A DNA stretch of 45,901 bases from a virus: positions 1 through 45,901 of the IMG/VR virus record IMGVR_UViG_3300000969_000002, one strand, 5' to 3'. How positions within the stretch are numbered: position 1 is the stretch's first letter; each line of letters begins with the position of its first letter. The notes under the pieces are model-generated. The model was not told the DNA's origin. It saw only the letters and a program-made list of their open reading frames with translations, and did no database searches. Shown here piece by piece: positions 31,504 through 45,901 of the stretch. The position numbers and the translations under genes were made by a program.

Positions 31504-31504
31504 T

Positions 31505-31742: not shown

Positions 31743-31756
31743 AATAATGTAAAAAA

Positions 31757-31808: not shown

Positions 31809-31940
31809 ACTTAAATAATCGAAACACACGATGGCAATATAAATTGTGTGTCTGTAGAAATTGAGCAAAGCTGCACTGATGAGAACGCTCTTAACCATGA
31901 GCACGTAAGTGTTCTAATTTAAATATAAAGGACTAATAAA

Positions 31941-32456
31941 ATGGCTGTTAAAAAAGCATATCAAGAAATCGTAACATTCTTACAAGAAAATGAAGGTGTT
32001 AAGGTAAATAAAATCTTACCACAAGTTATCGAAATGGCAAGCGCTAAGCGTGGCGGTGGTTCAACTTCTGATGCTGTATTGAAAGATGCAAATGGGAATG
32101 TTGTTGCAATCCAAGATTACTACTTCAAGCGCTATATGCCAATTGTTGGCGATAATGCCGTTGAGTTTGGTGCGAAAAAGAATTCTCCTACTGGACTAAG
32201 TAATATGTCTAAGTTAGGTACTTCTTTGTACACAAAACAACAACGTGTTGCCAAACAAGAAGGCGCTAACCTATTGACACGTGTTGCAGCTGGTGAAGTT
32301 GCTCCTACTGATATCGAAGCAGAACAAGCAAAGATTGAAGAAGCACGCATGGCAATTCAAGAAACAGACTTAGGTTTTGCGACAAAAGACGAAGTGATTG
32401 CTCATCTTGCAACACAAGGCGTTGAAGCGCTTGACCCAACTGCTTCAGCCGAGTAA
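31941..32456 (+). CDS. abundant-type early protein of unknown function (171 aa)
   Basis: ORF track; AAGGA upstream. Has its own strong promoter and a long hairpin/terminator. Visibly higher GC and codon choice typical of highly expressed genes, compared with the neighbouring early genes. Confidence 0.8.
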   Translation: MAVKKAYQEIVTFLQENEGVKVNKILPQVIEMASAKRGGGSTSDAVLKDANGNVVAIQDYYFKRYMPIVGDNAVEFGAKKNSPTGLSNMSKLGTSLYTKQQRVAKQEGANLLTRVAAGEVAPTDIEAEQAKIEEARMAIQETDLGFATKDEVIAHLATQGVEALDPTASAE

Positions 32457-32479
32457 TATATACTAGTTATACTCGACTT

Positions 32480-32575
32480 GGGAGGCGTTTGTATTCCCCT
32501 TGATATCATGGTGGTGTAATGAGCCACGTTTATGGAACATGATATATTAGAACAAACGCCTCCCTAAATTTTTTT
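32480..32575 (+). terminator. 85-nt compound hairpin + T7 run (terminator and/or RNA processing site)
   Basis: 13-bp perfect outer stem gggaggcgtttgt (32480-92) / acaaacgcctccc (32552-64). Inner 8-bp stem atatcatg / catgatat and an apical gtgg/ccac stem. TTTTTTT at 32569-32575, 4 nt after the stem. Confidence 0.6.
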
Positions 32576-32596
32576 ACTTAGATAAAGGAAATTATC

Positions 32597-32827
32597 ATGA
32601 ATATGACAAGAAAGAATACATTAACAGATGTTATAGGTGGATTAAATAATTTAGATGTTAATTCATTCCATTCAAAATCAAGTGGTACGACAAAATATGC
32701 AGGCGCAATATCTCAAGCAGAACGTACTAAACGCACAGCGCATAAAAAGAATGTTAAGAAGATGCAACGTGCAGAACGGTTAAAACGTACGGCAAAAGGC
32801 CGAAAGAAACTCGCTGCAATTAATTAA
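32597..32827 (+). CDS. small highly basic protein (76 aa)
   Basis: ORF track; AAGGA upstream; Lys/Arg-rich C-terminal half (KRTAHKKNVKKMQRAERLKRTAKGRKK). Confidence 0.6.
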   Translation: MNMTRKNTLTDVIGGLNNLDVNSFHSKSSGTTKYAGAISQAERTKRTAHKKNVKKMQRAERLKRTAKGRKKLAAIN

Positions 32828-32844
32828 CATAATATCATAATTTT

Positions 32845-32945
32845 ATTACGGTCCATAGGAGCTCCGTGAGGCCTCCAATATTTTGGCTTATGATTATATA
32901 CAAAAATCAAAACAAGCCTCATACGGATGAGATATGGATCGTAAT
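32845..32945 (+). other. ~100-nt imperfect RNA hairpin (candidate RNase III-type processing site or structured RNA)
   Basis: Outer 13-bp stem attacggtccata (32845-57) / tatggatcgtaat (32933-45) with one G-U pair that only works in the + sense. Inner stems ccgt/acgg and gaggc/gcctc with an internal loop and a ~43-nt apical region. Confidence 0.45.
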
Positions 32946-33025
32946 ATTATTACATTTTTAAGAGTAACACATCAAAATCACTTACTGACAGTATTAATTA
33001 ACATAATATTGAAATAAAATAATTG

Positions 33026-33054
33026 TTTACAAATATAAAAATATAGCGTATAAT
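33026..33054 (+). promoter_or_regulatory. promoter P4: TTTACA-17-TATAAT with a truncated UP-like element
   Basis: -35 at 33026-33031 and -10 at 33049-33054; upstream GAAATAAAATAATTG at 33011-33025. Confidence 0.6.
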
Positions 33055-33082
33055 CTTATTCTTTACATAATTGGAGATCCAA

Positions 33083-33265
33083 ATGCCAGCATACATTTCA
33101 TTTACTATAGGTGCATTGTTTGTGATATTTACTATCATACTTGATTACAATACACCACTTAAAGTCGATATATTCAAAACTATACCGATTCCTTATTTAA
33201 TCTTATCTTACTTTATATACTTAATACCTTGTATGGTTACGTATAAGCTTTTGTGGAAAGACTGA
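33083..33265 (+). CDS. small membrane protein (60 aa)
   Basis: ATG 33083 has GGAG 6 nt upstream (the track starts at TTG 33071). Two hydrophobic segments. Confidence 0.6.
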   Translation: MPAYISFTIGALFVIFTIILDYNTPLKVDIFKTIPIPYLILSYFIYLIPCMVTYKLLWKD

Positions 33266-33269
33266 CACT

Positions 33270-33587
33270 ATGGCGAGACCGATGATATTAATTCCAAAAT
33301 TACTACTGGAGGAGATATACGAGCGCTATCAAGCTGGCGTCCCCACGACTGTATTAAGGCGTAAGAACCAATTAACTATGTCCAGACCTACTCTTGCAAA
33401 GCTCTTAGCTATACGTGAGAAAATGGATAAAATACAAGATACTGAGACACACAATAAAATCGAAGCGTCAATATATCCAGAATGGTTATATAATATAAAG
33501 ATGGAAATTAAACAACCCATGGGCTGGCGTTACCGTGGACAATTCCCATTAGGTGAGTGGGAAGAATATGATTGGAGCGAAGAATGA
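33270..33587 (+). CDS. hypothetical protein (105 aa), possible HTH
   Basis: ORF track; segment LTMSRPTLAKLLAI. Confidence 0.6.
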   Translation: MARPMILIPKLLLEEIYERYQAGVPTTVLRRKNQLTMSRPTLAKLLAIREKMDKIQDTETHNKIEASIYPEWLYNIKMEIKQPMGWRYRGQFPLGEWEEYDWSEE

Positions 33588-33832
33588 AGAACCTAAAGAC
33601 GTATAAAGTTGTAGTAACTAAGTGGGTACCTACAGATGTTGAAATGGAAATTGAATGTGAAAACGCTACATGGGCGAAGACATTAGCTAAGGCTCAAGCG
33701 CATAGAAAATCAAAACTAAATCCGGGTGATAAATTAGAACGTGCTCACGGTACTATAAAAGTAATTAAAGTTAAAGAATATGCACGCTCAACTAAAATGA
33801 CGTTATTAAGATTAGTGAGGATTAAGAAATGA
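33584..33832 (+). CDS. hypothetical protein (82 aa)
   Basis: ATGA overlap with the upstream stop (the track starts at TTG 33572). Confidence 0.55.
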   Translation: MKNLKTYKVVVTKWVPTDVEMEIECENATWAKTLAKAQAHRKSKLNPGDKLERAHGTIKVIKVKEYARSTKMTLLRLVRIKK

Positions 33833-34026
33833 AATATTATAAAGACCTTGCTTATCATGAGCAACAAAAAGTGTTAGACAACCTACAAGAGCTACCTTTG
33901 TTTAAAGTATTCCGCAATAACGCACATAATATGCTTATGACATCAGTATTACACATGTTTGATGATAAGTTAGGTCTTCATACATTAGCGGAACCAGTGC
34001 AGAAAGTGGCAAAAAACAAATCATGA
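33829..34026 (+). CDS. hypothetical protein (65 aa)
   Basis: ORF track; ATGA overlap with the upstream gene. Confidence 0.55.
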   Translation: MKYYKDLAYHEQQKVLDNLQELPLFKVFRNNAHNMLMTSVLHMFDDKLGLHTLAEPVQKVAKNKS

Positions 34027-34589
34027 ATATATTCTTAACTACTCCATACACTAGTTGTGCTAAAGATTTATGCGACCTACGCCTTAATAAAATGATATTA
34101 GAAACGGCTCAACTGTTATCAACTGCATATAGGCACTTATTTGGTGATTTAGACGATTTGTATAAAGTAACTCATGTCAATCATCCTTGCTCTATATGGG
34201 CGCGTAAAAATGTAAACAACTATGCATGGCTGTATGAGTACTGGTATTTACTAGTACAAGAACGTCAAAAACGTTTTAATAAGTCTCACCTTAGTTATGA
34301 CAAATTAAAGTTCTTATTACTACCTCCAGAAGCAACAATAATAATTTATAATAACGAACCTATAACATTTGATTTTAATTGTTCTAATATACATCCAAGC
34401 ACAAATGTGTATATGGACTACCGTAAATGCCTTATACAAAAATGGTTAACAGATAAGCGCGAACCTAAATGGACTAATTCAAGCAAGCCTGAATGGCTTA
34501 CAGAAGATATTACAGCGCAGCGTACAGCACTATCTACGCTATCTGACTTTAGTAAACAAGTATACATTAGAAAGTTATTATTTACATGA
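34023..34589 (+). CDS. conserved hypothetical protein (188 aa)
   Basis: The N-terminal ...LCDLRLNKMILETAQLLSTA...HVNHPCSIWAR pattern is recalled from a widespread phage/bacterial family of unknown function; no function asserted. Confidence 0.65.
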   Translation: MNIFLTTPYTSCAKDLCDLRLNKMILETAQLLSTAYRHLFGDLDDLYKVTHVNHPCSIWARKNVNNYAWLYEYWYLLVQERQKRFNKSHLSYDKLKFLLLPPEATIIIYNNEPITFDFNCSNIHPSTNVYMDYRKCLIQKWLTDKREPKWTNSSKPEWLTEDITAQRTALSTLSDFSKQVYIRKLLFT

Positions 34590-34789
34590 CAAAGCATAGA
34601 AATAACAATAATAGAACATTGACAAGTAGATGTTTAGGGGAAAGTGTTAACGGGCCACGAGCTACACTAGTTAAATATTATGAAAAGTTAGCCTATAACA
34701 CAAGAGATGTTATAGATCAACAAACATTCTGGCAACATGCTGAACATTATAAACGGATGGAGGGGAACAATGGCCAAAGGAATAACTAA
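34586..34789 (+). CDS. small protein with DUF4167-like motif (67 aa)
   Basis: YYEKLAYNTRDVIDQQTFWQHAEHYKRM resembles the ...YEKY..LA.......E.Y.QHAEHY.R signature recalled for DUF4167. Confidence 0.5.
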   Translation: MTKHRNNNNRTLTSRCLGESVNGPRATLVKYYEKLAYNTRDVIDQQTFWQHAEHYKRMEGNNGQRNN

Positions 34790-35063
34790 TGACATAAAAG
34801 TCATACTAATGAGAAGTAAGACAAGTATGAATGCAGTGCAATTATTGCATGCGTTAGATGTTGAAGTACATACTGATACTGAAGAGAGTACTATTAAATC
34901 AATAGTTAGTCAAATGAAACGCAGAGGTCACTTAAAAGCAACTAAGACGTATTGTAAGTGTTGTTTGGCGCAAAGGTATTACTACACGTTAACAGATGAG
35001 GGGCGTATGACTACTAATATTGATATTGCTCATGGTGTTTTGGATTTAGAATTAGTAGGTTAA
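34770..35063 (+). CDS. winged-helix DNA-binding protein candidate (97 aa)
   Basis: ATG 34770 has GGAGGGG upstream (the track starts at 34737). ...MNAVQLLHAL...IKSIVSQMKRRGHLKAT...YYYTLTDEG fits a MarR-like wHTH layout. Confidence 0.5.
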   Translation: MAKGITNDIKVILMRSKTSMNAVQLLHALDVEVHTDTEESTIKSIVSQMKRRGHLKATKTYCKCCLAQRYYYTLTDEGRMTTNIDIAHGVLDLELVG

Positions 35064-37331
35064 ATGTTACACGATTTATTTATAAATGCAGGAATGCATA
35101 CAGTGCCGCTTAAGGGTAAGTTAGAACGCTTGGAAACAGGTAAAAAGACTATACCTATATTTGAGGAAGACTGGCGCGCTAAATACACAGAAACGTTTCA
35201 CAAGAAAGCAGTGCCACTCGCTGGTGTTATTACAGGCGCATGCTCTGGGATTATTGCTATTGATTGCGATAACCAAGCGACCTACGATATATTTAAAAGT
35301 TTTGATCCTACCTACAAATTTCATTTTGTATCTGAGGGTAAACCTGAAGGCGGCGGAACTATTATATATAAATACACTGATGAAGTAGGAACCTTTAAAC
35401 TTGCTAATGACGATATGAAATTAGACTTTTATGCCGATGAGGGTTTTGTGTACCTACCTACTGAAGCTAATAAGACTAAGCAATCTTGGGCTAATATGAC
35501 AATGTTGCCTCCAATGAAAGAAGCTCCTGAAGTAATTAAGATATTGCTTAAGACATTTGCAGCTAAAGCACCTAAGGTTGGTGTTGCCTCAGACACTTCT
35601 GTCCGCACAGCTATATCTAATAGGTTAGCTCCTATGATTGAAGACTTTTGTACAAAAGGCGAATACTCACCAGCGTTATTTAAAATTCTTACCCCAAAAT
35701 CATTTAGGGATTTACCAACTTATGTAAAACAAGGACATCTGCACCCTGATGAAATACCTGAAGGTAGAGGCTCAGAATACTTAAGCAAGGTTTCGGCCAT
35801 TCTGGGCTCAGATATATCCGTTTCTGCAGAATTATATACCAAGACTATAGGATTAATTAATAGCTTCTGGAAGGCTCCTATGGACCGTGGACAGCTTTTG
35901 AAAACGGTTATCAATCCTATGTTAAATGAACAAGCCACTATTGACGGTGACGTTATATGGAAATATGACGAGCACTGGGAAGATATGGGCTTTATCGCAA
36001 CCGCAAGTAATGGAGATTATATTGAAAGTTTCTTTGATGATGTTAAGAGTTTATACTACCTTATTAACTATACTGTGCCGTATATCAAAACGTTTACCGA
36101 TAAGCGACCGTTACTTACAACCCTTAAGACGTTGCTTGCAAGGAATGTTACAGAGGGGCAATATGATGCTTGTAAGCAAATTAATAGAACGGTCCTCTCG
36201 CCTGCGCTTGAATTTGGACACGTTGAGGCGTCAGATGAATTCAATTTATTTAGGCAAACCGAAGGATTAACAATACTTAATGATCCTGAGCCTTATAAGC
36301 ATCATTACAATCGCCCTACACATATATTAAATTATTTTGAAAGTCTTATACCTGATGATTATATGCGTGGTTATGTACTATCGTTTTTACGCACAAAACT
36401 AACGACATTTAAATATAGTCCTGTTGTTCTGTATCTTATAGGTAAGCCCGGCTCAGGTAAAGATACTATGGTTGGTATACTGCGGCGTATTATTGGTGAT
36501 GCTTATGTTGCTAAGCCAGATACAAAAGTATTCCTTGAACAATACAACGGCTGGATGATGGATAAATATATCATTCAGTTAGATGAGTATGGGAATAAAC
36601 TGGTTAAGACATCAGATAAGCAAGAAGCTTTAGGTAAAATTAAAGCATATACAGGTTCTGAAGAAGTACAGATACGTGCTATGCGCCAAGACGGTTTTAA
36701 CTATATGCATAGCTCAACATTTATAATGACTGCTAACTCTAATCCATTACCTGTTGAAACTGATGATCGGCGTATAGCTTTTGTACAGACGCCAAACAAA
36801 CTTGAAGCGCAACCATGGGTTAGGGAAGCTGGTGGTATATCACATGTTATTGAAATGATACAAGGTGAAACATTAGATTTTTGCTATTACTTAGCTAATG
36901 AAGTTGAAAACCTTAATATGGATGAGTATGTTATTGCGCCAGAAACAGAAGATAAAGAGAAACTTATTCTATCTCATCTTCCTGCTGTTGAACAAATTAT
37001 ATTCTACGTTAATAACTCGCGCTATAAAGAGTTGTGCTTACTAGCTGATGAATATGGCGTAGGTGATTTTAAGCTTAATTGGGATAAGAATAAATTGCTA
37101 CATGAGAAATTAATGGAGCTATATGATCTAATGACTGAAGGTGCTGGAACAAGCAGAACACTTATTAGAATGATGAAAGACATTGGTATGAAGCGAAGTC
37201 ATACAACATTTATGGGTAGTAATTGTTTTTACTATTATATACCTGACTTACACAACTTTGCATCTATTGAAACTAAGAATGATGGTTTTGTGCCAATGAA
37301 AGAAGAAACCGTTAAACCGAAAGGACTATAG
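35064..37331 (+). CDS. bifunctional primase-polymerase (prim-pol) / SF3 helicase
   Basis: 755 aa. N-terminal prim-pol-like HTVPLKGK...GIIAIDCDN; C-terminal Walker A LIGKPGSGKDT and Walker B IIQLDEYG of D5/P4-type helicases. Confidence 0.8.
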   Translation: MLHDLFINAGMHTVPLKGKLERLETGKKTIPIFEEDWRAKYTETFHKKAVPLAGVITGACSGIIAIDCDNQATYDIFKSFDPTYKFHFVSEGKPEGGGTIIYKYTDEVGTFKLANDDMKLDFYADEGFVYLPTEANKTKQSWANMTMLPPMKEAPEVIKILLKTFAAKAPKVGVASDTSVRTAISNRLAPMIEDFCTKGEYSPALFKILTPKSFRDLPTYVKQGHLHPDEIPEGRGSEYLSKVSAILGSDISVSAELYTKTIGLINSFWKAPMDRGQLLKTVINPMLNEQATIDGDVIWKYDEHWEDMGFIATASNGDYIESFFDDVKSLYYLINYTVPYIKTFTDKRPLLTTLKTLLARNVTEGQYDACKQINRTVLSPALEFGHVEASDEFNLFRQTEGLTILNDPEPYKHHYNRPTHILNYFESLIPDDYMRGYVLSFLRTKLTTFKYSPVVLYLIGKPGSGKDTMVGILRRIIGDAYVAKPDTKVFLEQYNGWMMDKYIIQLDEYGNKLVKTSDKQEALGKIKAYTGSEEVQIRAMRQDGFNYMHSSTFIMTANSNPLPVETDDRRIAFVQTPNKLEAQPWVREAGGISHVIEMIQGETLDFCYYLANEVENLNMDEYVIAPETEDKEKLILSHLPAVEQIIFYVNNSRYKELCLLADEYGVGDFKLNWDKNKLLHEKLMELYDLMTEGAGTSRTLIRMMKDIGMKRSHTTFMGSNCFYYYIPDLHNFASIETKNDGFVPMKEETVKPKGL

Positions 37332-37333
37332 AA

Positions 37334-37759
37334 ATGTTTGAAGAACTAAAAGTACTATTAGATATGTTAGGTAATGTTGACGACATTGCTTTGTGGATTG
37401 TTGGAGGCTTCGCTGTATACAAGTTGATTATATACTTAAGTAGTATGGGCGCTGTTGTAATGATTATTAAGTTGATTGTTAATAAGCTGTATGACGTATC
37501 TCATGAGGGTATAACCAATAAGAAAGAAATTGAAAGTAATAGGCTTAAGATAAGAGAGCAAGAACTTGATTATGAAATTGCAAAAACAAGTCTTAAGTCT
37601 TTAAATCGTATTTTCGATGCTAAAACAATAACTCATGATGGTACACAAGAAGCTTTTGTTTCATTGTTAAACAGGATGCGCTCGGATGGTTCTGACTATG
37701 TACATACGTCTGATGTTGTAAAATTAGAAAAAGCGTGGGCGGAGTATAATAAAAAGTAA
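37334..37759 (+). CDS. membrane-anchored protein (141 aa)
   Basis: Hydrophobic segments IALWIVGGFAVYKLIIYLSSMGAVVMIIKLIV, then a helical domain. Confidence 0.6.
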   Translation: MFEELKVLLDMLGNVDDIALWIVGGFAVYKLIIYLSSMGAVVMIIKLIVNKLYDVSHEGITNKKEIESNRLKIREQELDYEIAKTSLKSLNRIFDAKTITHDGTQEAFVSLLNRMRSDGSDYVHTSDVVKLEKAWAEYNKK

Positions 37760-37941
37760 TGCCCGGTACAGTACCTAAAAAGAAAAAAGATTTAAGCGAC
37801 GCCAAGAAGCGCAAGTGCATGTCATGCAAGAATATGTTTTATTCTTTGTGGCGAGGTAACAGAATTTGCGATAGGTGTAAAACACATGACGCATGGCAAA
37901 ATCAAGATTATGAAGAAGGTTATAATATAAGTAATGACTAA
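37759..37941 (+). CDS. small zinc-ribbon protein, paralogue 1 (60 aa)
   Basis: CMSCKNMFYSLWRGNRICDRCK (CxxC-14-CxxC) after a basic N-terminus. Confidence 0.6.
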   Translation: MPGTVPKKKKDLSDAKKRKCMSCKNMFYSLWRGNRICDRCKTHDAWQNQDYEEGYNISND

Positions 37942-38134
37942 TAAGACAAGAAAAGATAGGCGACCAGATGAAAATAGCATTGAACGTGCTTGTCTAAGAT
38001 GTAGAGAAAAGTTTTTATCTTTATGGAAAGGTAATAGACTTTGTGACAAATGCCGCTCTTATGCGAATAGGCATAATAATATTGATGCACAAGACAGAGT
38101 GCAAACAGGAGGACGCCATGGAAGAGCGGATTAA
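37934..38134 (+). CDS. small zinc-ribbon protein, paralogue 2 (66 aa)
   Basis: CLRCREKFLSLWKGNRLCDKCR, the same CxxC-x2-F-x-SLW-x-GNR-x-CDxC core as the upstream gene. Confidence 0.6.
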   Translation: MTNKTRKDRRPDENSIERACLRCREKFLSLWKGNRLCDKCRSYANRHNNIDAQDRVQTGGRHGRAD

Positions 38135-38399
38135 TATCTTAGTAATAGCTTACTTTGCATTAATAATAATCACAGCTGTAATAAGTACACATTTATTAGC
38201 AGCAAGAACTGATAAAACAACGTATAAAGTAATAAACGAGAAGAATAAAATTACTATCGCTAAATATCTTGAATTAGTGAATGAGCTTGAAGTTGATAAT
38301 TTAGATTTAGGCAAACAAATAGAGTATTTAGAACAAGAGAATAGAATACTACGATATAATCCTATATGTGATGTTAGAGGAGAGAACATTGTTAGATAA
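38118..38399 (+). CDS. membrane-anchored coiled-coil protein (93 aa)
   Basis: ATG 38118 has AGGAGG upstream (the track starts at 38043). TM segment ILVIAYFALIIITAVISTHLL, then leucine-zipper-like LELVNELEVDNLDLGKQIEYLEQENRIL. Confidence 0.6.
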   Translation: MEERINILVIAYFALIIITAVISTHLLAARTDKTTYKVINEKNKITIAKYLELVNELEVDNLDLGKQIEYLEQENRILRYNPICDVRGENIVR

Positions 38400-39696
38400 A
38401 TTTGTTGAGTTTCTTGAAAGTGACGCACCAGAGATGTATATCCAAGGTACAGCAGGTACTGGGAAGACGACTATACTATATGAGCTGATGGATTATTGTA
38501 TAGATGAAAACATTGGTTCAGTTGCCGCTGCATATACTCATAAAGCTGTTAAGGTTTTACGTGAGAAATTACCTCGCGAGACAGATAGAAACATTATACG
38601 AACATTACATAGTTATTTAAAGAAACGTCCAACTATCAATGGTTCAGCAACTAAGGTTTCTCAAGTTGATGGTAATTCACAAGCAGATAAACCTGAATAC
38701 GCAAAAGTTATATTCCTTGATGAGTTTAGTATGGTTGGGGAAAAGGATTATACTGATATATTAGATTTACAGTATGATGATGAAGATGGTGAATTAATAA
38801 CTAAGGTAGTTTACATAGGGGATAAAAACCAACTTCCTCCTGTTAAAGATCAACAGACAATTGAGCCTCACGGTGATTTTGTAGTAACACTAACTAAAAT
38901 ATATAGACAAGAAGGTGATAATAAGATAATAGATACTTTATTAACTATCAATGACTATATTAATGGTAAACCAGCTAAACCTTTAGTCGAACACAACAAT
39001 TTTAAAAGAGGTGTTAACATTGCTGACTATTATAAAGCTTGTCGTGAGGATAAGATATTACTAGCTTATACTAATGAGCAAGTAGAAGAGTTGAACGCTG
39101 ACATACAAGGTTATAGAGTACCGTTAAACAATGATAGATTATTTAGCCCGACCTTACGTAAGTTTTTTGATCTTGGTTCTATAAACAAGAAATCAGAACA
39201 GATATTTAATATAATGGGTGAAGTGCTTGAGCTTAATTCAACATTTAAAACTCTTGAAACAATACATGAACTTGAGGGAGTTAAATTTTATACTTTAACA
39301 CAGGGTGTTGATGAATACGAATATGCCGCAGTGTTCGGACATAAAACGTACTTAGATATACAAAAGAAACTTGCTAATAAAGCAGTATTTATAAATAAGA
39401 AGATTGTATCTCAATTTAATGAAGATGCAAAACAATGGGCAAAGCGTAATTGGAAGCATGATTTAGCTAAAGCAAGAAGTGAAGCTTGGCGTAAATATTT
39501 GGCTTTCAAACAAAATGTAATATGTATTGATTTTCCGCATGCTATGACTGTACACAAATCACAAGGTAGTACGTATAAAAATGTATTCCTTGACACAGAC
39601 GACATAGCTAAGTGTGCGGATAAAGATTATGCTTTGTACTTGAAGTTGATGTATGTCGGGATTAGTCGTGCATCTGATATGGTATATACTAACTAG
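38371..39696 (+). CDS. Dda/RecD-like SF1 helicase
   Basis: Walker A GTAGTGKTT, Walker B VIFLDEFSMV, YIGDKNQLPPV, MTVHKSQGSTY, YVGISRA. Start is uncertain: ATG 38371, or TTG 38389 which has GAGGAGAG 4 nt upstream. Confidence 0.8.
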   Translation: MLEERTLLDKFVEFLESDAPEMYIQGTAGTGKTTILYELMDYCIDENIGSVAAAYTHKAVKVLREKLPRETDRNIIRTLHSYLKKRPTINGSATKVSQVDGNSQADKPEYAKVIFLDEFSMVGEKDYTDILDLQYDDEDGELITKVVYIGDKNQLPPVKDQQTIEPHGDFVVTLTKIYRQEGDNKIIDTLLTINDYINGKPAKPLVEHNNFKRGVNIADYYKACREDKILLAYTNEQVEELNADIQGYRVPLNNDRLFSPTLRKFFDLGSINKKSEQIFNIMGEVLELNSTFKTLETIHELEGVKFYTLTQGVDEYEYAAVFGHKTYLDIQKKLANKAVFINKKIVSQFNEDAKQWAKRNWKHDLAKARSEAWRKYLAFKQNVICIDFPHAMTVHKSQGSTYKNVFLDTDDIAKCADKDYALYLKLMYVGISRASDMVYTN

Positions 39697-39705
39697 GAGT
39701 TAACG

Positions 39706-39891
39706 ATGGAAGATAAAAGTATAGCAGAACTTATAGAAATACGCGACAGCTTAAAACCTAAACGTGTTAGAGTTGAACGAACTTCATCACCAGCGCAATT
39801 GCGTATGTATAAACTTAATAAAGAAATGAAGCTTAAGAAGCGACGTTTAGCGTTACTAGAAGAGATTAACTTACTCAAAAATATTACGTAA
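39706..39891 (+). CDS. hypothetical basic protein (61 aa)
   Basis: ORF track; AGGAG upstream. Confidence 0.55.
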   Translation: MEDKSIAELIEIRDSLKPKRVRVERTSSPAQLRMYKLNKEMKLKKRRLALLEEINLLKNIT

Positions 39892-39921
39892 ATTAACATA
39901 ATTTAATATGGTAATTAAAAA

Positions 39922-39974
39922 GAAATAATATTTCAAAATTTTATATTTACTTTTATACAATAATATAATATAAT
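39922..39974 (+). promoter_or_regulatory. promoter P3: UP-like element + TTTACT-17-TATAAT
   Basis: GAAATAATATTTC at 39922-39934; -35 at 39946-39951; -10 at 39969-39974. Precedes the SSB gene. Confidence 0.65.
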
Positions 39975-40055
39975 GATTTTCTAATTTGAGCGGAGGCTCG
40001 GATCGCTGTATCGCAAGTGCAATATACAGTGTAATTAAACTGAAAGGAAGACAAT

Positions 40056-40745
40056 ATGTCTGATAAAAAACCAAGACTAGTAACCGGTAAAGGTGAATTG
40101 CATTATGTAACTTACAACGGTTCAGGTAAAGAAAACTTTAATGAAGATGGATTTGAATACGTTGCGGATATTCGTTTAACCGGTGAAGCAGCTGAAAAAG
40201 CAATAGCAGAAATTGATGCTATTATTGATAAAGAATGTCCAGAGGGTTACACTGTTACTTCCTGTGGTTATAAAGAAATGGTACAAGAAAAAGGTAAGCC
40301 TGATACAGCTCGTGTACCTACTAAGAAAAAAGGTAAGCAAGCAAATGAAGAAGGTACAGGTATTTACAATTTTCATTTTAAAACTAATGTTGAATTTACT
40401 GGTAAAGATGGTAAAGTTTTTCAGTCTAAGATTAACGTTTACAATGCATACAATAAGATTATTTCTCTTGGGGATAAACGTATTGGTAATGGATCACTTG
40501 GACACTTATCCGGTACAGTTGGTACATACAGCGATAAAAAGAAAGAAGAGTTTTCTATTGGGCTATACCTAAAAGGTATTCAACTAAAGAAATTTATTGA
40601 GTACACAGGTGACGATGGCTTTGAAGACGATGAAGACGATGACGATGGCTTCGAGGGCGTTGAAGACAATGAAACAGGTTTTGTGGCACAAGATGAAGAC
40701 GCTACAGCTGACGCTCCTGTTGAAAAGGTCAAGCCTAAGCTTTAG
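40056..40745 (+). CDS. single-stranded DNA-binding protein, T7 gp2.5-like
   Basis: 229 aa. ...IGNGSLGHLSGTVGTY...FSIGLYLKGIQLKKFIEYTGDDGFEDDEDDDDGFEG parallels the gp2.5 GGGSKLKV...VKLQLESVMLVE...GGEDDW layout with an acidic aromatic tail. Has its own strong promoter and terminator. Confidence 0.65.
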   Translation: MSDKKPRLVTGKGELHYVTYNGSGKENFNEDGFEYVADIRLTGEAAEKAIAEIDAIIDKECPEGYTVTSCGYKEMVQEKGKPDTARVPTKKKGKQANEEGTGIYNFHFKTNVEFTGKDGKVFQSKINVYNAYNKIISLGDKRIGNGSLGHLSGTVGTYSDKKKEEFSIGLYLKGIQLKKFIEYTGDDGFEDDEDDDDGFEGVEDNETGFVAQDEDATADAPVEKVKPKL

Positions 40746-40756
40746 AGTACCAATAT

Positions 40757-40796
40757 GGCGGAGCAGATACGGAAAACAGCTGCTCCGCCTACTTTT
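40757..40796 (+). terminator. rho-independent terminator after the SSB gene
   Basis: ggcggagcag (40757-66) / ctgctccgcc (40780-89), followed by tactttt. Confidence 0.65.
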
Positions 40797-40818
40797 AACA
40801 TTATTAAGGGAGATTATA

Positions 40819-41046
40819 ATGGAAGTTAAAGAAGTAACTGTAGGAATACAGCGAGTTATCAACTTAGGTAACTATGAAAATGTGCGTTATGAATGTAGTG
40901 TAACTGTTACTAAAACTCATGACGACGAAACACCTCAAGATTTATATAACCAAGGTTTAGATTTTTGTAAAGAAAATGTTGGTGCTGAGGTTGATCGTTT
41001 AGAAGCTTATAAGAAAGCCGCTAAAGCAGCAAAGTCAAAAGCATGA
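40819..41046 (+). CDS. hypothetical protein (75 aa)
   Basis: ATG 40819 has GGGAG upstream. The track ORF 40597..41046 is the same frame running back through the SSB gene and the terminator. Confidence 0.6.
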   Translation: MEVKEVTVGIQRVINLGNYENVRYECSVTVTKTHDDETPQDLYNQGLDFCKENVGAEVDRLEAYKKAAKAAKSKA

Positions 41047-41228
41047 CAACAATAATACTTTGGGCGTTAATAGTTTTTGATACTTATACAAAAGATTATT
41101 TTCAAGTACACATGTATTTTGAGACTGAGTTGGAATGTCAAACAGCAGCTGAGTATATAGTAACAACTAAAGATGAAGAAGCAATTTGTATTAAATCACA
41201 ATTTGAAGTAGAGGGGATAGAAGTATGA
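41043..41228 (+). CDS. hypothetical protein (61 aa), N-terminal hydrophobic segment
   Basis: ORF track; ATGA overlap. Confidence 0.5.
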   Translation: MTTIILWALIVFDTYTKDYFQVHMYFETELECQTAAEYIVTTKDEEAICIKSQFEVEGIEV

Positions 41229-41458
41229 AATCAACAAAAGAACTAGTACCATTAGTAGTTTACCATGAGCATGAAAATTATAGTGCTAGAGTATATAAGT
41301 ATCAAGTTTATATCGCTGAATACGATAGAAGTAAACATATACCTAAAAATATCTCTACTAACTATGTATGTTTTAATTCACAAGAAGAAGTTGAAGCATA
41401 TTGTCAAGGATTGGAAGCAGCAGGAATAACCTATAAAGGTAAGAGGAAACAGCAATGA
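41225..41458 (+). CDS. hypothetical protein (77 aa)
   Basis: ORF track; ATGA overlap. Confidence 0.55.
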   Translation: MKSTKELVPLVVYHEHENYSARVYKYQVYIAEYDRSKHIPKNISTNYVCFNSQEEVEAYCQGLEAAGITYKGKRKQQ

Positions 41459-43137
41459 GAGAAGTACCGTTTAAATTCATTCCAATTACAGAGCTAAAAA
41501 ATCATATAGATTTAGAAAAGCCTGTTATGGCTGATACTGAGACAATAGGATTATACGGTAAAATACGTATTATTCAATTCTTTCAGGAAGGTTGGGAAGA
41601 AGTATTAATTGTTGAAAATCCTGATCCATTCCAATTAGTTGCAGCAATATCAAAAGCTCATCTTGTGTTTCACAATGCTCACTATGATATATCAACTATT
41701 CAAGCAAACTTGGGTGGAATTACATGGCTCCCGGAAAAGTACGATTGTACATTCTTATTGAGCCGTTTGCACTTCTTTAAGAAAGAAAAATTCTCACTTG
41801 ATGAAGTTGTTAAATATGTTTTAGATGTTGACATATATGGTGACGATAAGAAAGAAATGCATAAAGCAGATTGGAGCGTGCCGGTATTATCTACAAAACA
41901 AATTGCTTATGCTGCAAGTGATGTGTTATATTTGTATGATGTATATAATGTTGTTAACACTCAAGAAGAGAACATTAATTATAGATTAGACATTTTATCT
42001 ACTAACTATGCATTAGACTTTCAGAATAATGGTTTTCCTTTTGATGAGACAAAGCTTAACGCACAATATGCTCATAACTTAGCTCGTATTGAAGCCATTG
42101 CTTTACCTATCAATTGCAACTCGTACCAGCAAGTACGCGAGTATATTGGTTCTAATATGTCAGATGATTTAGGTTTATCAACATTAATTGCTCAAGGTAA
42201 TACACGTGCTAAAGATGTTAAAGAAACCCGTAAACTAACTAAAGAGAATTCATTCCTTAAGAAATTCTTAGACACTGCTGATGATGGTTGTATCTTTGGT
42301 AAGTTTAAATTCTCACCACGTTCTGGGCGCTCGGCTTCAGATAGTCAAAACTTACAACAATTACCGCGTTCAACTAAAGGTATATTTGGCGTTAGCACGG
42401 AAGACGATATAGTTATTATATACTCTGACTTCTCACAAATGCAATTGCGTGGTGTATGTGCGGTGACTGGTGATAAAACTATGGAAGAGTTATTTAGGAA
42501 AGATGAAGATATACATAGTTATGTGGCAAAAATTATCTTTGGTGAAAACTATACTAAACAAGATAGGCAAATTTGTAAGACTGCTAATTTCGGTTTATTA
42601 TTTGGTGCTGGAGTTGCAACATTCCAAAACATTTTGCTGAAACAAGCGGGATTAAATCTACCTGAAGATGAAGCAGCTGCGATTAAAAAGAAATGGTTGC
42701 AACTATGGAAAGAAGTTGCTGCATGGCAAACTGAAGGTATTCGTGCATGGAAACGCAAAGAAGCCTGGGAAACTCCCCTAGGTAGGCGTTACACAGCAAG
42801 AATGATGACTGACCAACTTGCTATGCAAATTCAAGGTTTTGAAGCTGAGGTAGCTAAATTGTCAATGCATTATATGATGCCAAAGCTTAAAGAGCTTGAT
42901 CCTGGTATTAAGCTGCGTAACTTTGTACATGATAGTTACATATATACATGCCCAAAAGATGAGCAACTATATAAAGCTGCAAGTTTAATAATTGCTGAAA
43001 GTATGCAAGAAGGCTGGCAAGAAATGTCACAGTCAGTAAAAATTAAAGACTTACCTATGCCTGTTAATGTTCGCGCGGGCTACAATTGGGGTGATATTGA
43101 AGATGGCGAATACATTTACGAACTAAATAAGGACTAG
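41455..43137 (+). CDS. family A DNA polymerase with 3'-5' exonuclease domain (T7-like, no 5' nuclease domain)
   Basis: Exo I MADTETIG, Exo III-like HNAHYDIST / YAASDVLY. Pol motif A IIYSDFSQMQLRG, motif B RQICKTANFGLLFGAG, motif C NFVHDSYIY. Confidence 0.9.
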   Translation: MREVPFKFIPITELKNHIDLEKPVMADTETIGLYGKIRIIQFFQEGWEEVLIVENPDPFQLVAAISKAHLVFHNAHYDISTIQANLGGITWLPEKYDCTFLLSRLHFFKKEKFSLDEVVKYVLDVDIYGDDKKEMHKADWSVPVLSTKQIAYAASDVLYLYDVYNVVNTQEENINYRLDILSTNYALDFQNNGFPFDETKLNAQYAHNLARIEAIALPINCNSYQQVREYIGSNMSDDLGLSTLIAQGNTRAKDVKETRKLTKENSFLKKFLDTADDGCIFGKFKFSPRSGRSASDSQNLQQLPRSTKGIFGVSTEDDIVIIYSDFSQMQLRGVCAVTGDKTMEELFRKDEDIHSYVAKIIFGENYTKQDRQICKTANFGLLFGAGVATFQNILLKQAGLNLPEDEAAAIKKKWLQLWKEVAAWQTEGIRAWKRKEAWETPLGRRYTARMMTDQLAMQIQGFEAEVAKLSMHYMMPKLKELDPGIKLRNFVHDSYIYTCPKDEQLYKAASLIIAESMQEGWQEMSQSVKIKDLPMPVNVRAGYNWGDIEDGEYIYELNKD

Positions 43138-43140
43138 AAA

Positions 43141-43398
43141 ATGTACTATATATTACAATCATCAGTCTATTTTCACGGCTGCAATGGTCCATATGAAACT
43201 ATAGAGGACGCAAAGAAAGAATTTAATAAAGCTTATGAAGAAGCTAAAGTGTCACGCAAAAATTGGCGTGCTTTTGACGGTCATCATATGTTTCATATTG
43301 TAAAAGAACTGCCAAAGCTACCGTTTCAATTACATGAGCAAGAACAAATAGAAACAATTGAATTTGAACCTTTACATAAAATACTGGGAGACTATTAA
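43141..43398 (+). CDS. hypothetical protein (85 aa)
   Basis: ORF track. Confidence 0.6.
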   Translation: MYYILQSSVYFHGCNGPYETIEDAKKEFNKAYEEAKVSRKNWRAFDGHHMFHIVKELPKLPFQLHEQEQIETIEFEPLHKILGDY

Positions 43399-43623
43399 AT
43401 GTATGTAATATTAAAAACAAATACTGATATTAAAGAAACAATGATTGCGCGTGATATTCATGATAAATATGTCTGGGACAATTACGATGCTGCTGAAAGA
43501 CGTATAAAACAATTAGCGGAAAATAACAACGATGAGAAACATACTATTATTTATAAAACGGTAGACATTGAAACCTTCATTAAAACATTAATAGCACATA
43601 ACAAAATAAAGGATATACTATGA
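43399..43623 (+). CDS. hypothetical protein (74 aa)
   Basis: ORF track; starts directly after the upstream stop. Confidence 0.6.
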   Translation: MYVILKTNTDIKETMIARDIHDKYVWDNYDAAERRIKQLAENNNDEKHTIIYKTVDIETFIKTLIAHNKIKDIL

Positions 43624-43787
43624 GCGCGATAACTGTAACTGACTTACATGACAGAGATCATGAATTTGACAACGTAACAATAACACACGATAAGCACCTA
43701 GTTATTGTAACAAACATAAAGACAAAAAATACTGTTGGTATGTTTGCTAATCCAGTAGCTGTAATAGTTGAAAGAGAGGAAGACTAA
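43620..43787 (+). CDS. hypothetical protein (55 aa)
   Basis: Not in the track. ATGA overlap upstream and TAATG overlap with the TS-like gene downstream. Confidence 0.45.
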   Translation: MSAITVTDLHDRDHEFDNVTITHDKHLVIVTNIKTKNTVGMFANPVAVIVEREED

Positions 43788-44623
43788 TGGAAAATTGGGA
43801 AAAACTACAATACGCAAAACTAATACAAAAGATTATGCACTCAGGACAGAAGCGTGAAACTCGTAATGTCTCAACTTATTCAATATTTGGGGAGTTGATT
43901 GAGATTGACATCAGTACTCACTTCCCTTTATTGAATGGGCGTAAGTTATTTTATAAACCTGTCTTAGGTGAGTTAGCAGCAATGTTAAGAGGACCTAAAC
44001 ATATAGATGACTTTAAAAAGTTTGGTTGTAACTATTGGAATAGTTGGGGGTATAAAAAAGACGCTCATGATATTAATAACGCACATGGACCAGATGAAGG
44101 GCATATAGAGGTAGATTATGGTAACGCTTGGCTTGATTTTAACGGCTTTAACCAACTTGAAGACGTGGTTAATAAATTACAAAACAATCCTGCAGATCGT
44201 AGAATTATTGTGTCTGGTTGGAGGCCTGATCGTCTTGATAAACTCAGTCTTCCTTGCTGTCATATGCTATACCAGTGGTATGTGCGAGGGGACACACTCG
44301 ATATGGTATGGTATCAGCGCTCTGTGGATACTATGGTCGGCTTACCTTCTGATATTATTCTTTGCGCTGCGTGGAATATTATATTGGCTAACCAATGCGG
44401 ATATAAGCCAGGTGTTATTAAGCTGGTATTGGGCGACACTCATATATATGATAACCATATTAACGGAACTTTAGATTATTTGCGCCAGTTAAATAACTGT
44501 GAAGAAGCTAAGGTACCTTATGAGATAGATCCTAAAGCGACAATTAGTAATTTTAGACCTGAGATGTTAACCTTAGGTGAATATCAACCCCAAGATAAGT
44601 TAGGATTTGAGTTAAATGTCTGA
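43787..44623 (+). CDS. thymidylate synthase (ThyA) family enzyme with Asp at the pyrimidine-specificity position: predicted dCMP methyl-/hydroxymethyl-transferase
   Basis: 278 aa; full-length ThyA-like. It carries RRIIVSGW, LPCCH (catalytic Cys), YQRSVD and GDTHIY. GLPSDI replaces ThyA GLPFNI, so Asn177 (E. coli numbering) is Asp. Confidence 0.85.
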   Translation: MENWEKLQYAKLIQKIMHSGQKRETRNVSTYSIFGELIEIDISTHFPLLNGRKLFYKPVLGELAAMLRGPKHIDDFKKFGCNYWNSWGYKKDAHDINNAHGPDEGHIEVDYGNAWLDFNGFNQLEDVVNKLQNNPADRRIIVSGWRPDRLDKLSLPCCHMLYQWYVRGDTLDMVWYQRSVDTMVGLPSDIILCAAWNIILANQCGYKPGVIKLVLGDTHIYDNHINGTLDYLRQLNNCEEAKVPYEIDPKATISNFRPEMLTLGEYQPQDKLGFELNV

Positions 44624-44771
44624 TAAAATATATAAAATAGAGTTTGATGGTTTTGAAGGTACTATGATCGGTTCTTACACAACTCGTGAAGGTCGAGAAG
44701 GTGTTGTACTCCAACAAACTGGAACTAAGATTGTACATGTATACGGTAAAAATCATATAGAAGGGCAATAG
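44616..44771 (+). CDS. hypothetical protein (51 aa)
   Basis: Not in the track. ATG 44616 overlaps the TS-like 3' end by 8 nt; the stop lies 1 nt before the next ATG. Confidence 0.45.
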   Translation: MSDKIYKIEFDGFEGTMIGSYTTREGREGVVLQQTGTKIVHVYGKNHIEGQ

Positions 44772-44772
44772 C

Positions 44773-45393
44773 ATGAATGATAAATTAAAAGTTATAAGTG
44801 ATGAAAAAGATGGTAGCGAGGCTACGGTGTCTGTTACAGATAGAGTTATACTATGGAATGCTAAAAGATACGAGCAAAAGTATGACTATAACTTAGCTAG
44901 TAGATTACTACTTGAAGAAACACAAGAGTTATATGACGCTAACGGTTATATTCAACAAATGGATGCTGTTGGTGATATATTCTTTGTTGCAATTGGTGTA
45001 TTCTGGAAGCTTGGTTTAAAATCTAGTACTATAAATGAAATCTTTATGTCTCAACCATTACATGATATGACTTTAGTCGAACTTCATGAATGGGCCACAC
45101 ATGTTGAATGGCGTATGTTAGAAATGATTGATGGTGAAATCGAAGGTGCTTATCCAGGTATCAAGCTTGCAACATTTGCGCCATTTATTATTGCTATGCC
45201 AATGTTACAAGCCATGGGTATGGGACACTGTATATTTGAGATTGTTAAAATCATTTGTGATAGTAATGACACTAAATCAATTGATAAAGTTGCACATGAT
45301 GTAAAAGCAAATCTTGATAAAGGTGAAGATTACAGATCACCTACTGCTGCTTTACAAGTATTATACTCAAGAGAGAAAGGGCGTATACAATGA
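44773..45393 (+). CDS. all-alpha NTP pyrophosphohydrolase (MazG / T4 gp56 dCTPase-dUTPase-like)
   Basis: 206 aa. RLLLEETQELYDA...QMDAVGDIFFVAIG is the EExxE...(E/D)xxD metal-binding helix pair of the MazG/dimeric-dUTPase superfamily. Confidence 0.6.
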   Translation: MNDKLKVISDEKDGSEATVSVTDRVILWNAKRYEQKYDYNLASRLLLEETQELYDANGYIQQMDAVGDIFFVAIGVFWKLGLKSSTINEIFMSQPLHDMTLVELHEWATHVEWRMLEMIDGEIEGAYPGIKLATFAPFIIAMPMLQAMGMGHCIFEIVKIICDSNDTKSIDKVAHDVKANLDKGEDYRSPTAALQVLYSREKGRIQ

Positions 45394-45901
45394 TAAAAAC
45401 AGTAACAGGTAGAAATCAATTACATAAATACTTAATTGAAGTTGCAGCTAAATCACCTTGTAATAAACGCAAAGTAGGCGCTGTAATGGCACGAGAAATT
45501 TTTGAAGGAGAAATAGATTATGAAATTCTTGCTGAAGGCTATAACTTTAATCCTGATGGCGGAAGTTGTGAAACTGGTGAAGGCGAAACGAAAGATGAAG
45601 TAATTCACGCTGAAGTTGCTTGTGTTAATAACTTTCAAGACACTTTAAACACCGGTGCCGAAACACCTGCAGGTACTACATTATTTGTTACCCATCCACC
45701 TTGTGATGGTTGCAAAGCAACTTTACTTAGGCATAAAATACCCTATGAAGTTATGGGTGACTTTATGAAGTTTGATAGTGATAAACCAAGACTGTCTTTA
45801 GTACCTGGTTCTTTAGTTGAAGCTGTTGGTAGAGTTGTTACATACGGAGCTAAGAAATACAAAGTTGATAACTGGAAGAAAGTACCAAGTCAAGAACGAT
45901 A
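45390..45901 (+). CDS. dCMP deaminase fused to a DUF5664-like domain, N-terminal part (continues at 1..197; 219 aa in total)
   Basis: ATGA overlap with the upstream gene. Zinc motifs VIHAEVACV and THPPCDGCK. From ~45780, KFDSDKPRLSLVPGSLVEAVGRVVTYGAKKYKVDNWKK runs through the window end. Confidence 0.85.
   Translation, partial: MIKTVTGRNQLHKYLIEVAAKSPCNKRKVGAVMAREIFEGEIDYEILAEGYNFNPDGGSCETGEGETKDEVIHAEVACVNNFQDTLNTGAETPAGTTLFVTHPPCDGCKATLLRHKIPYEVMGDFMKFDSDKPRLSLVPGSLVEAVGRVVTYGAKKYKVDNWKKVPSQER
45853..45901. repeat. second copy of the 49-bp terminal overlap (identical to 1..49)
   Basis: Exact identity read directly from the sequence. Confidence 0.95.

Follow-up and report, generated by a model that had tools for sequence, protein, structure and literature searches.

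The viral DNA of IMG/VR record IMGVR_UViG_3300000969_000002 (positions 1 to 45,901; this whole stretch of 45,901 nt is called the window below) encodes, in one co-directional cluster, a homologue of the thymidylate synthase (TS) ThyA with Asp in place of the Asn that reads uracil, an all-alpha NTP pyrophosphohydrolase, and a deaminase. The module is probably a pre-replicative 5-methylcytosine (5mC) pathway of the type of Xanthomonas phage XP12, and its ThyA homologue is predicted to convert dCMP to 5-methyl-dCMP. An earlier note, made from the sequence alone, had described four open reading frames (ORFs), namely these three genes and an ORF of 51 amino acids (aa), as a candidate module for C5-modified cytosine. 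All four ORFs are present where the note had placed them, and its proposal agrees with the residue-level tests described below, with the occurrence of Asp at the critical position in 114 of the 120 best homologues, and with published work on the same gene neighbourhood.

The ThyA homologue carries Asp at the pyrimidine specificity position

The gene of the ThyA homologue (43787..44623, + strand) encodes 278 aa that match PF00303 (Thymidylat_synt) over residues 8-276 (E 8.7e-62, 209 bits, cutoff 24.3), as expected from the alignment with ThyA along the whole length that had been noted before, and phrog_160 (E 6.9e-75). The closest matches in the PDB are true thymidylate synthases, with TS of phage T4 (1TIS, E 6.5e-40) at the top. 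The full-length PF00303 match, together with the catalytic Cys146, the phosphate clamp formed by Arg126/127 and Arg166, and Glu58, Tyr94 and Asp169 (numbering of E. coli ThyA), places the protein in the superfamily of TS and pyrimidine C5-(hydroxy)methylases. The conserved residues are R26 (E. coli R21), E62 (E58), W84 (W80), W87 (W83), Y111 (Y94), R138/R139 (R126/R127), L155 (L143), C158 (C146), H159 (H147), Q177-R178-S179 (Q165-R166-S167), D181 (D169), H219 (H207) and Y221 (Y209).

In TS, Asn177 reads the O4/N3-H of uracil, and a canonical dUMP-specific TS (EC 2.1.1.45) is expected to have Asn at this position. The protein of the window has Asp189 instead, encoded by a GAT codon at 44351..44353 (+). 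In the alignments with T4 TS 1TIS and E. coli ThyA, YQRSVDTMVGLPSD of the ThyA homologue pairs without gaps with YQRSCDVFLGLPFN. Because the alignment from YQRSVD to GLPSD is gap-free, with a constant offset of 12, Asp189 is, as judged from these alignments, the equivalent of E. coli Asn177 and thus lies at the pyrimidine specificity switch. The exchange of GLPFN177I for GLPSDI had been described as the single difference from ThyA; the Asp at N177 was recovered, but there is a second departure, F176 to S188, which is found throughout the clade, in members with Asp as well as in those with Asn.

The same exchange has been made in the laboratory: in E. coli TS N177D and in L. casei TS N229D the preference is switched to dCMP (Hardy & Nalivaika 1992; Liu & Santi 1992, both as cited in PMC8670742). 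The protein of the window can be viewed as a natural counterpart of these mutants, since they share an otherwise canonical TS site with a single Asn-to-Asp exchange. It differs from them in being natural, in being conserved in more than 100 relatives, and in carrying F176S as well. By analogy with these mutants and with the virome homologues discussed below, the chemistry of the ThyA homologue would be methylation of dCMP.

A methyl product is predicted

Asp at position 177 is common to enzymes that methylate and enzymes that hydroxymethylate or hydroxylate dCMP. The dCMP hydroxymethylase of T4 lacks the C-terminal tail, which in TS closes off the active site, and it has Val85 for Trp83 and Asp145 for Leu143; this Asp145 serves to activate the water for its attack on the exocyclic methylene (PMC6400193). 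According to a 2026 paper in Nucleic Acids Research on 5-hydroxycytosine, N177D leads to a preference for dCMP, a bulky hydrophobic residue at position 143 excludes water, and Asp or Glu at 143 marks hydroxymethylases as well as flavin-dependent 5-hydroxy-dCMP synthases (PMC13326640).

Judged by these features, the ThyA homologue does not look like a T4-type hydroxymethylase. The residue that corresponds to E. coli Leu143 is Leu155 (codon CTT, 44249..44251, +), a hydrophobic residue that fits a methyl rather than a hydroxymethyl product, and Leu is found here in 120 of the 120 best homologues, in which C146 and H147 are invariant, too. The C-terminal tail has the length of that of TS and ends in ...GFELNV, and the Trp is conserved as W87. 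A 5-hydroxy-dCMP synthase of the RB69 gp48 / DLP3 gp80 type would combine N177D with L143E, whereas Leu is found at 143; the glycosyltransferases that would correspond to the partner arabinosyl or glycosyl transferases of such synthases were absent in genome-wide Pfam scans. In addition, no hydroxymethylase entry was found among the 60 PDB matches listed of 122. Conversely, the Asp177 of a dCMP C5-methyltransferase of the XP12 type (EC 2.1.1.54) is present, and so is the hydride-transfer apparatus (hydrophobic residue at 143, Trp83, Asp169 and tail), in the form of L155, W87, D181 and the tail.

Since all three signatures of the T4 hydroxymethylase are absent, the predicted product is 5-methyl-dCMP with release of dihydrofolate (DHF). 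The suggestion of the earlier note that the TS-like C-terminus hints at reductive methylation fits well with the retention of the tail, L143 and W83. The residue-143 rule is a guide, not a law, because position 143 is Asn in the enzyme of XP12 itself (in which position 147 is Pro).

The downstream genes encode an all-alpha NTP pyrophosphatase and a deaminase fusion

The TS gene is followed by the 51-aa ORF (44616..44771, +), the ATG of which overlaps the TS stop codon by 8 nt. Its stop codon is 1 nt away from the next ATG, and the third junction is an ATGA overlap; from this arrangement we infer translational coupling of the module genes. The 51-aa ORF has no match in Pfam or PHROG and no homologue in 93 related loci, and it may be irrelevant to the pathway.

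The next gene (44773..45393, +) encodes a 206-aa protein that matches phrog_671 'nucleotide pyrophosphohydrolase' (1.1e-9). Glu48, Glu49, Glu52, Asp64 and Asp68 (EExxE...D...D) are invariant, and the AlphaFold2 (AF2) model consists of eight helices and no strands (pLDDT 93). The all-helical fold and the EExxE...D metal-binding motif are those of the MazG/PRA-PH/dimeric-dUTPase superfamily of all-alpha NTP pyrophosphohydrolases. The top Foldseek matches of the model are dimeric dUTPases, with a marginal E of 0.07 (prob 0.98), and hhalign finds the motif region of the PRA-PH protein of XP12 (E 1.6e-4). PF01503 is carried by 4 of the 43 homologue clusters among those listed. A sequence-profile search of the PDB yielded no significant match to the protein, and hhalign detected no homology to T4 gp56 (probability 2%). 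As neither the comparison with gp56 nor the PDB profile search is significant, the description as a MazG/T4-gp56-like pyrophosphatase holds at the level of the superfamily, as shown by motif, model and phrog_671, and not for gp56 itself. On the basis of sequence and model, the protein is thus assigned to the all-alpha NTP pyrophosphatase superfamily, and dCTPase is a candidate activity only.

The last gene of the module runs over the window ends. Positions 1-49 and 45853-45901 contain the same 49 bases, which shows that the window is a circular contig, closed at 45,852 bp; the arbitrary start point of this contig splits the deaminase ORF (45390..197). The part at 45390..45901 (+) contains the first 170 codons and two bases of codon 171, and the remainder, with the stop codon, lies at 50..197 (+). 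Together they encode 219 aa, a fusion of a deaminase domain (residues 10-118, HAE at 73-75 and PCxxC at 104-108) with a DUF5664 domain from residue 127 onward. The same 219-aa protein, identical and unsplit, is present on a 28.5-kb contig of another assembly (P0164). The dCMP deaminase recognized earlier by its HAE and PCDGC motifs was therefore identified correctly as far as the deaminase half is concerned, whereas the fusion to DUF5664 had been hidden by the window edge.

The deaminase domain matches PF00383 with 41.3 bits (cutoff 25), and H73, A74, E75, P104, C105 and C108 are invariant. Its closest structure is the dCMP deaminase of cyanophage S-TIM5 (4P9C; profile 1.4e-18, Foldseek 2.5e-7). 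Motifs and fold are thus those of a Zn-dependent dCMP deaminase. The second domain matches PF18909 over residues 127-211 (E 1.1e-28, 99.6 bits, cutoff 27), and Y152, G153, A154, K156, Y157, K158, N161, W162, R177 and H178 are conserved. A DUF5664 protein of Arthrobacter phage Wayne hydrolyses dATP, dUTP and dGTP to the monophosphates (PMC12884076). The deaminase-DUF5664 fusion is widespread: a search with it returned 318 clusters, and both PF00383 and PF18909 were found in 119 of the best 120 listed. It is also encoded by the cultured phages Amaethon (L100 3891-4490) and PH1 (L099 3848-4597), where it is annotated as hypothetical.

The module belongs to a described kind of viral gene neighbourhood

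The DNA of XP12 contains 5mC in place of C (bioRxiv 10.1101/2024.12.05.627091). The operon of this phage consists of genes for a PRA-PH protein, a TS homologue with Asp, a deaminase and a dihydrofolate reductase (DHFR), and PaMx74 (Pamexvirus) has the same layout. The XP12 gene just upstream of the TS homologue (L094 46207-46980) is annotated as 'hydrolase (HAD superfamily)' and contains a PRA-PH (MazG-like) domain (E 6.6e-15); thus, XP12 also has the NTP-pyrophosphatase member of the triad. The window and XP12/PaMx74 share the three enzyme types in one co-directional cluster, the Asp177 and the retained C-terminal tail, and the expected outcome would be the same, namely 5mC in the DNA and dT nucleotides from the deamination of 5-methyl-dC nucleotides. 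There are also differences. The gene order is TS-NTPase-deaminase in the window and NTPase-TS-deaminase in XP12, the phage of the window has no ribonucleotide reductase (RNR), its deaminase is fused to DUF5664, and it is a 46-kb podovirus, whereas XP12 is a 64-kb siphovirus. The TS homologue of the window is not closely akin to the XP12 and PaMx74 enzymes, to which it is 29-31% identical and which are on another branch. A family search and a phylogeny had been proposed by the earlier note as a check; they yielded the PF00303 assignment and an Asp-dominated clade, but XP12 and PaMx74 fall outside this clade in the neighbour-joining tree. The Asp state of the window and XP12 enzymes may be shared by descent or may be convergent.

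Virome studies have described the same neighbourhood. In the MetaGPA study (Yang et al. 2021), thymidylate synthase had, of all domains, the strongest association with modified cytosine, and Asn177 versus Asp was the key residue (PMC8670742). In a 2024 preprint, 70% of the deaminases on modified contigs were located within 3 kb of a TS gene, versus 6% of those on unmodified contigs, and the domains most commonly co-located on modified contigs were PRA-PH, DNA_pol_A and DNA_pol_A_exo1 (bioRxiv 10.1101/2024.12.05.627091). Upon co-expression with T4 gp1 in E. coli, five of the seven virome TS homologues tested yielded 5-methyl-deoxycytidine (5mdC), and mSCD-B5, one of the 5mC-selective deaminases (mSCD) encoded in cis, acted on 5mdCTP, forming dTTP, but not on dCMP; the authors proposed that the deamination of 5mdCTP replaces a separate thymidylate synthase (bioRxiv 10.1101/2024.12.05.627091). 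The window resembles these contigs, likened here by their description, in the presence of Thymidylat_synt, dCMP_cyt_deam_1/MafB19-deam, DNA_pol_A and DNA_pol_A_exo1 and of a PRA-PH match below the Pfam cutoff, and in following the Asp rule. Having this neighbourhood, the module of the window belongs to the described kind. The deaminases differ in that mSCD-B5 is a single-domain protein of 154 aa, whereas that of the window is a two-domain fusion. The mSCD trait is polyphyletic and without a sequence signature, and the preprint does not mention the deaminase-DUF5664 fusion (bioRxiv 10.1101/2024.12.05.627091). What links the deaminase of the window with the mSCDs is solely its genomic location, in cis with a TS gene encoding Asp177.

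The module had first been compared to the gp42/gp56/cd system of T4. The logic is indeed alike, since in both systems a TS homologue with Asp that is directed to dCMP occurs together with a deaminase and an all-alpha dNTP pyrophosphatase, and the reading as a module for C5-modified cytosine is retained. However, XP12 is the better model, because the signatures of the T4 hydroxymethylase are absent: T4 gp42 has Asp145, Val85 and no C-terminal tail, and the enzyme of the window has none of these features. Moreover, the 206-aa protein does not match the gp56 profile significantly, the genome has neither a glucosyltransferase nor a gp1 kinase, and T4 has an additional, separate TS of the Asn type.

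Asp and Asn forms alternate within the clade

The 120 best homologues of the ThyA homologue were taken from a collection of 5.8 billion proteins; their identities range from 49 to 100%, and many of them are encoded on contigs of 40-47 kb. At position 177, six of them have Asn and all others Asp. The ratio was similar, with 87 Asp and 7 Asn, in a set of 94 loci drawn from phage records, IMG/VR and Logan. The codons of the two residues are one transition apart (GAT versus AAT or AAC). The Asn members are located at least at four separate places inside the Asp clade, an approximate count because the neighbour-joining tree is without bootstrap. They include loci L004 (6001-6807), L005 (6001-6858), L006 (6001-6822), L041, L048 and L049, with the motif GLPSN encoded by AAT or AAC, and the proteins P0030, P0032, P0037, P0049, P0052 and P0058. 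All these Asn loci have a gene for an Rv2179c-like exonuclease just upstream of the TS gene.

The Asn forms are presumably functional thymidylate synthases. That they recur within the Asp clade suggests that the shared scaffold still performs TS-type reductive methylation, which favours a methylase over a hydroxymethylase. The Asn lineage L004-L007 retains the gene order TS-NTPase-deaminase. The C-terminal domain of its deaminase, which in L004 is encoded at 7368-8102, has a weak match to DUF6378 in Pfam and not to DUF5664. That it might be a diverged DUF5664 was considered and rejected, because hhalign aligns the deaminase half only and the weak Pfam match is to DUF6378.

The gene neighbourhood was analyzed for 48 distinct loci of the Asp type in which the TS gene is flanked by 2.5 kb or more on each side, and neighbours within 3 kb were counted. 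A deaminase gene was present in 45 of these 48 loci, a MazG-like gene in 36, and DUF5664 in 24, fused to the deaminase in 19 of them. DUF5664 was absent from all five Asn loci (0/5 versus 24/48), a comparison that involves a small sample of loci that are not phylogenetically independent.

A distant sub-clade with Asp177 (L072-L092 and L014-L016, all IMG/VR contigs) carries Phe at position 147 (LPCF), in agreement with the MetaGPA study, in which positions 177 and 147 discriminated best between the contig classes (PMC8670742). The gene order of the LPCF sub-clade is XP12-like, with the MazG-like gene upstream and the TS gene overlapping that of a single-domain deaminase of 150-156 aa, an arrangement that resembles the description of mSCD-B5.

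Genome content and relatives

The virus is a podovirus of roughly 46 kb that belongs to the group of phages like KF-1 (Kafunavirus). Essentially every ORF was scanned against Pfam and PHROG, which revealed a P22-like portal, an SU10-type adaptor and a replication set comprising a primase-helicase, a Dda-like helicase, a gp2.5-like single-stranded DNA-binding protein, PolA, a 5'-3' exonuclease, an SNF2 helicase, a ligase and a VRR-NUC nuclease. In these scans, the three module proteins were the only recognizable enzymes of nucleotide metabolism. A second TS or ThyX, DHFR, RNR and a deoxynucleoside monophosphate (dNMP) kinase were absent, as were a glycosyltransferase, a DNA methyltransferase, a TET-like dioxygenase, a carbamoyltransferase and sugar-nucleotide genes. 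A Walker-A scan for a dNMP kinase gave no match beyond the Dda-like helicase and two structural proteins matched by chance, and PHROG scans found no kinase among 13 unassigned early or small ORFs. The earlier note had likewise recognized no canonical Asn-type TS, no glycosyltransferase and no P-loop dNMP kinase.

The A+T content of the genome is 64%. Restriction-site avoidance was used as a proxy for modification: G/C-containing 6-bp palindromes have a mean z of -0.33 and none is strongly avoided, and the CpG observed/expected ratio is 0.81; without a host for comparison, these values are uninformative on modification. The genome contains no tRNA genes, and promoter- and terminator-like sites around the module occur at chance level only.

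A family A DNA polymerase with 3'-5' exonuclease (PolA, 41455..43137, +) is encoded 0.65 kb upstream of the TS gene; in the pathway proposed below, this enzyme would need to use 5-methyl-dCTP as a substrate. The space from the PolA gene to the TS gene (43141-43787, +) is taken up by three small ORFs of 85, 74 and 55 aa. Their starts and stops overlap or abut, they have no family match, and related loci have other small genes at this place. Directly after the deaminase fusion, at 200-523 (+), follows a gene for a protein of the N4 gp49 / Sf6 gp66 family (PF13876, E 1.3e-22), and the small ORF after it (463-687) probably encodes a membrane protein. Farther away, at 34023-34589 (+), a 188-aa protein is encoded (phrog_624), the N-terminal half of which resembles Pyr_excise, the T4 endonuclease V family (E 5e-9). 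A member of this family of pyrimidine-dimer DNA-repair glycosylases is thus present in a small podovirus with probably modified pyrimidines. The region 29310-30330, which separates the terminase gene from the rightward early genes, is about 1 kb long and devoid of ORFs of at least 40 aa. It could be an early promoter, an origin or the region of the physical ends. The stretch from 30 to 32 kb has a G+C content of 27.8%, the minimum of the genome, and the only repeats found were weak and AT-rich.

A megablast search with 16 kb against 50,697 phage records gave no match, and thus the virus has no close cultured relative among these. The best relative at the protein level is Edwardsiella phage KF-1, with a TS identity of 48%. 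The window shares the order PolA, TS, NTPase, deaminase, nucleases, SNF2 helicase and ligase with KF-1 (Kafunavirus) and with metagenomic podoviruses. Asp177 and Leu143 are present in the cultured Edwardsiella phages KF-1, IW-1 and ETP-1, Pseudoalteromonas phage PH1, Dickeya phage Amaethon, Vibrio phage VPMS1 and Pelagibacter phage Kolga; except for Kolga, these phages also have the NTPase gene.

Proposed pathway and alternative explanations

The following pathway can be proposed. The all-alpha NTP pyrophosphatase would convert dCTP to dCMP, thereby depleting the canonical precursor and supplying the substrate of the next step. The ThyA homologue would bind dCMP, because Asp189 replaces the uracil-reading Asn177. 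As the hydride-transfer machinery (Leu143, Trp80/Trp83, Asp169 and the closing tail) is kept, it would form 5-methyl-dCMP and dihydrofolate from methylene-tetrahydrofolate. A host kinase or an unrecognized phage protein would then raise 5-methyl-dCMP to the triphosphate, the weakest step of the scheme, and PolA would incorporate it. The deaminase domain may convert part of the 5-methyl-dC nucleotide pool to dT nucleotide, as suggested by the 5mC-selective deaminases beside such TS genes, which would make a separate thymidylate synthase unnecessary in this genome with 64% A+T. The fused DUF5664 domain may be a second dNTP pyrophosphohydrolase that clears dUTP or dCTP, or that feeds monophosphate to the deaminase. 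The earlier note had assumed mainly that dUMP is fed to the host TS; this is less likely than the route from dCMP via 5-methyl-dCMP to its deamination product, which the note had mentioned as an alternative and which equals the proposal of the 2024 preprint for such deaminases.

Several observations weigh against this pathway. In the Asn-type sisters L004-L007, orthologues of both the MazG-like gene and the deaminase domain (the latter with 43% identity) are retained, and therefore these two genes are not specific to cytosine modification; in the Asn phages, the two proteins would run the series from dCTP via dCMP and dUMP to dTMP. The match of the 206-aa protein to PRA-PH (E 0.0098, 16.7 bits) is below the Pfam cutoff of 21.3, and dCTP is its candidate substrate. 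The TS homologue lies outside the XP12 branch and differs from the XP12 enzyme at two active-site positions, with H147 instead of Pro and L143 instead of Asn; the phage of the window has no DHFR, unlike XP12, and no dNMP kinase was recognizable in the Pfam, PHROG and Walker-A scans. To our knowledge, no enzyme of the TS clade of the window has been assayed. Finally, two of the seven virome TS homologues tested gave no 5mdC, and the published in vivo assay needed T4 gp1 for 5mdC to appear in E. coli DNA (bioRxiv 10.1101/2024.12.05.627091).

The missing kinase also leads to the question of whether 5-methyl-dCMP might essentially all be deaminated to dTMP, in which case the module would be solely a bypass route to thymidylate and the virion DNA would be canonical. 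The high dTTP demand of a genome with 64% A+T, the occurrence of a deaminase in 45 of the 48 Asp-type loci, and the Asn-type sisters, which with the same three genes would reach dTMP in the canonical order, are all in line with this idea. We nevertheless consider it unlikely, because contigs selected for modified cytosine show a strong enrichment of TS genes encoding Asp177 and of the adjoining deaminases, because XP12, with 5mC instead of C in its DNA, relies on the same triad, and because the bypass would be a detour to the same product without obvious benefit, yet Asp is found in about 95% of the clade. Another reading, in which the enzyme is an ordinary or dual-specificity TS despite its Asp and the deaminase supplies dUMP for the usual synthesis of dTMP, appears quite improbable. 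It would be compatible with an active site that is canonical, including H147, save for N177D and the clade-wide F176S, with the interchange of Asn and Asp forms at unchanged gene order, and with a deaminase domain that is closest to ordinary dCMP deaminases such as 4P9C. However, N177D in the E. coli enzyme and N229D in that of L. casei switch the preference to dCMP, Asp at 177 separates modified from unmodified virome contigs, and five of the seven Asp-type homologues tested made 5mdC.

A dCMP hydroxymethylase or another C5 chemistry, leading to 5-hydroxymethylcytosine or 5-hydroxycytosine and then to hypermodification as in T4 or RB69, is very improbable. Leu rather than Asp or Glu at 143 and the retention of W83 and of the TS tail speak against it, as do the absence of glycosyltransferase, carbamoyltransferase and sugar-nucleotide genes in the genome scans and the greater closeness to true TS (E 6.5e-40 with T4 TS), no hydroxymethylase being present among the 60 listed of the 122 PDB matches. 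The Asp177 that T4 gp42 and RB69 gp48 have in common, the annotation of one metagenomic relative as 'pyrimidine hmase', and the many ORFs of the genome without an assigned function are the points in its favour. Taken together, the XP12-type 5mC pathway is the explanation that we regard as probable.

Beyond this pathway, a more specific idea is doubtful: the deaminase-DUF5664 fusion might be a dedicated bifunctional enzyme of 5mC phages, which links the release of pyrophosphate with deamination on C5-methylated dC nucleotides, converting 5mdCTP via 5mdCMP to dTMP or acting in the reverse order, and so completes a self-contained thymidylate pathway of methylation followed by deamination. The G/A toggle in codon 177 might then have repeatedly moved sister podoviruses between 5mC genomes and genomes with canonical C, with an exchange of the partner domain of the deaminase, which is DUF5664 in the Asp phages and DUF6378-like in the one Asn lineage that retains the deaminase.

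Implications

The principle and the gene neighbourhood (PolA/TS(Asp177)/PRA-PH/deaminase) were already published in 2021 and 2024, and the gain of the present analysis is incremental. The additions are modest and consist of the deaminase-DUF5664 fusion, the Asn "revertants" in the Asp clade and the list of cultured relatives with Asp. Because the cultured relatives share the Asp, the prediction of 5mC is directly testable; no report of DNA modification or restriction resistance in cultured KF-1-like phages was found in the literature searched. The sister pairs with Asn and Asp and the same gene order represent a natural experiment on the specificity switch, and among the deaminase-DUF5664 fusions there may be new 5mC-selective deaminases, a type of enzyme that is of use in methylome sequencing.

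If the 5mC pathway exists, a widespread group of podoviruses with genomes of about 40-47 kb, including cultured phages of Edwardsiella, Dickeya, Vibrio, Pseudoalteromonas and Pelagibacter, would have 5mC for C while being annotated with an ordinary thymidylate synthase. This would bear on the evasion of restriction and CRISPR, on the suitability of phages of fish and plant pathogens for phage therapy, and on sequencing and cloning bias as well as estimates of the frequency of modified DNA in aquatic viromes.

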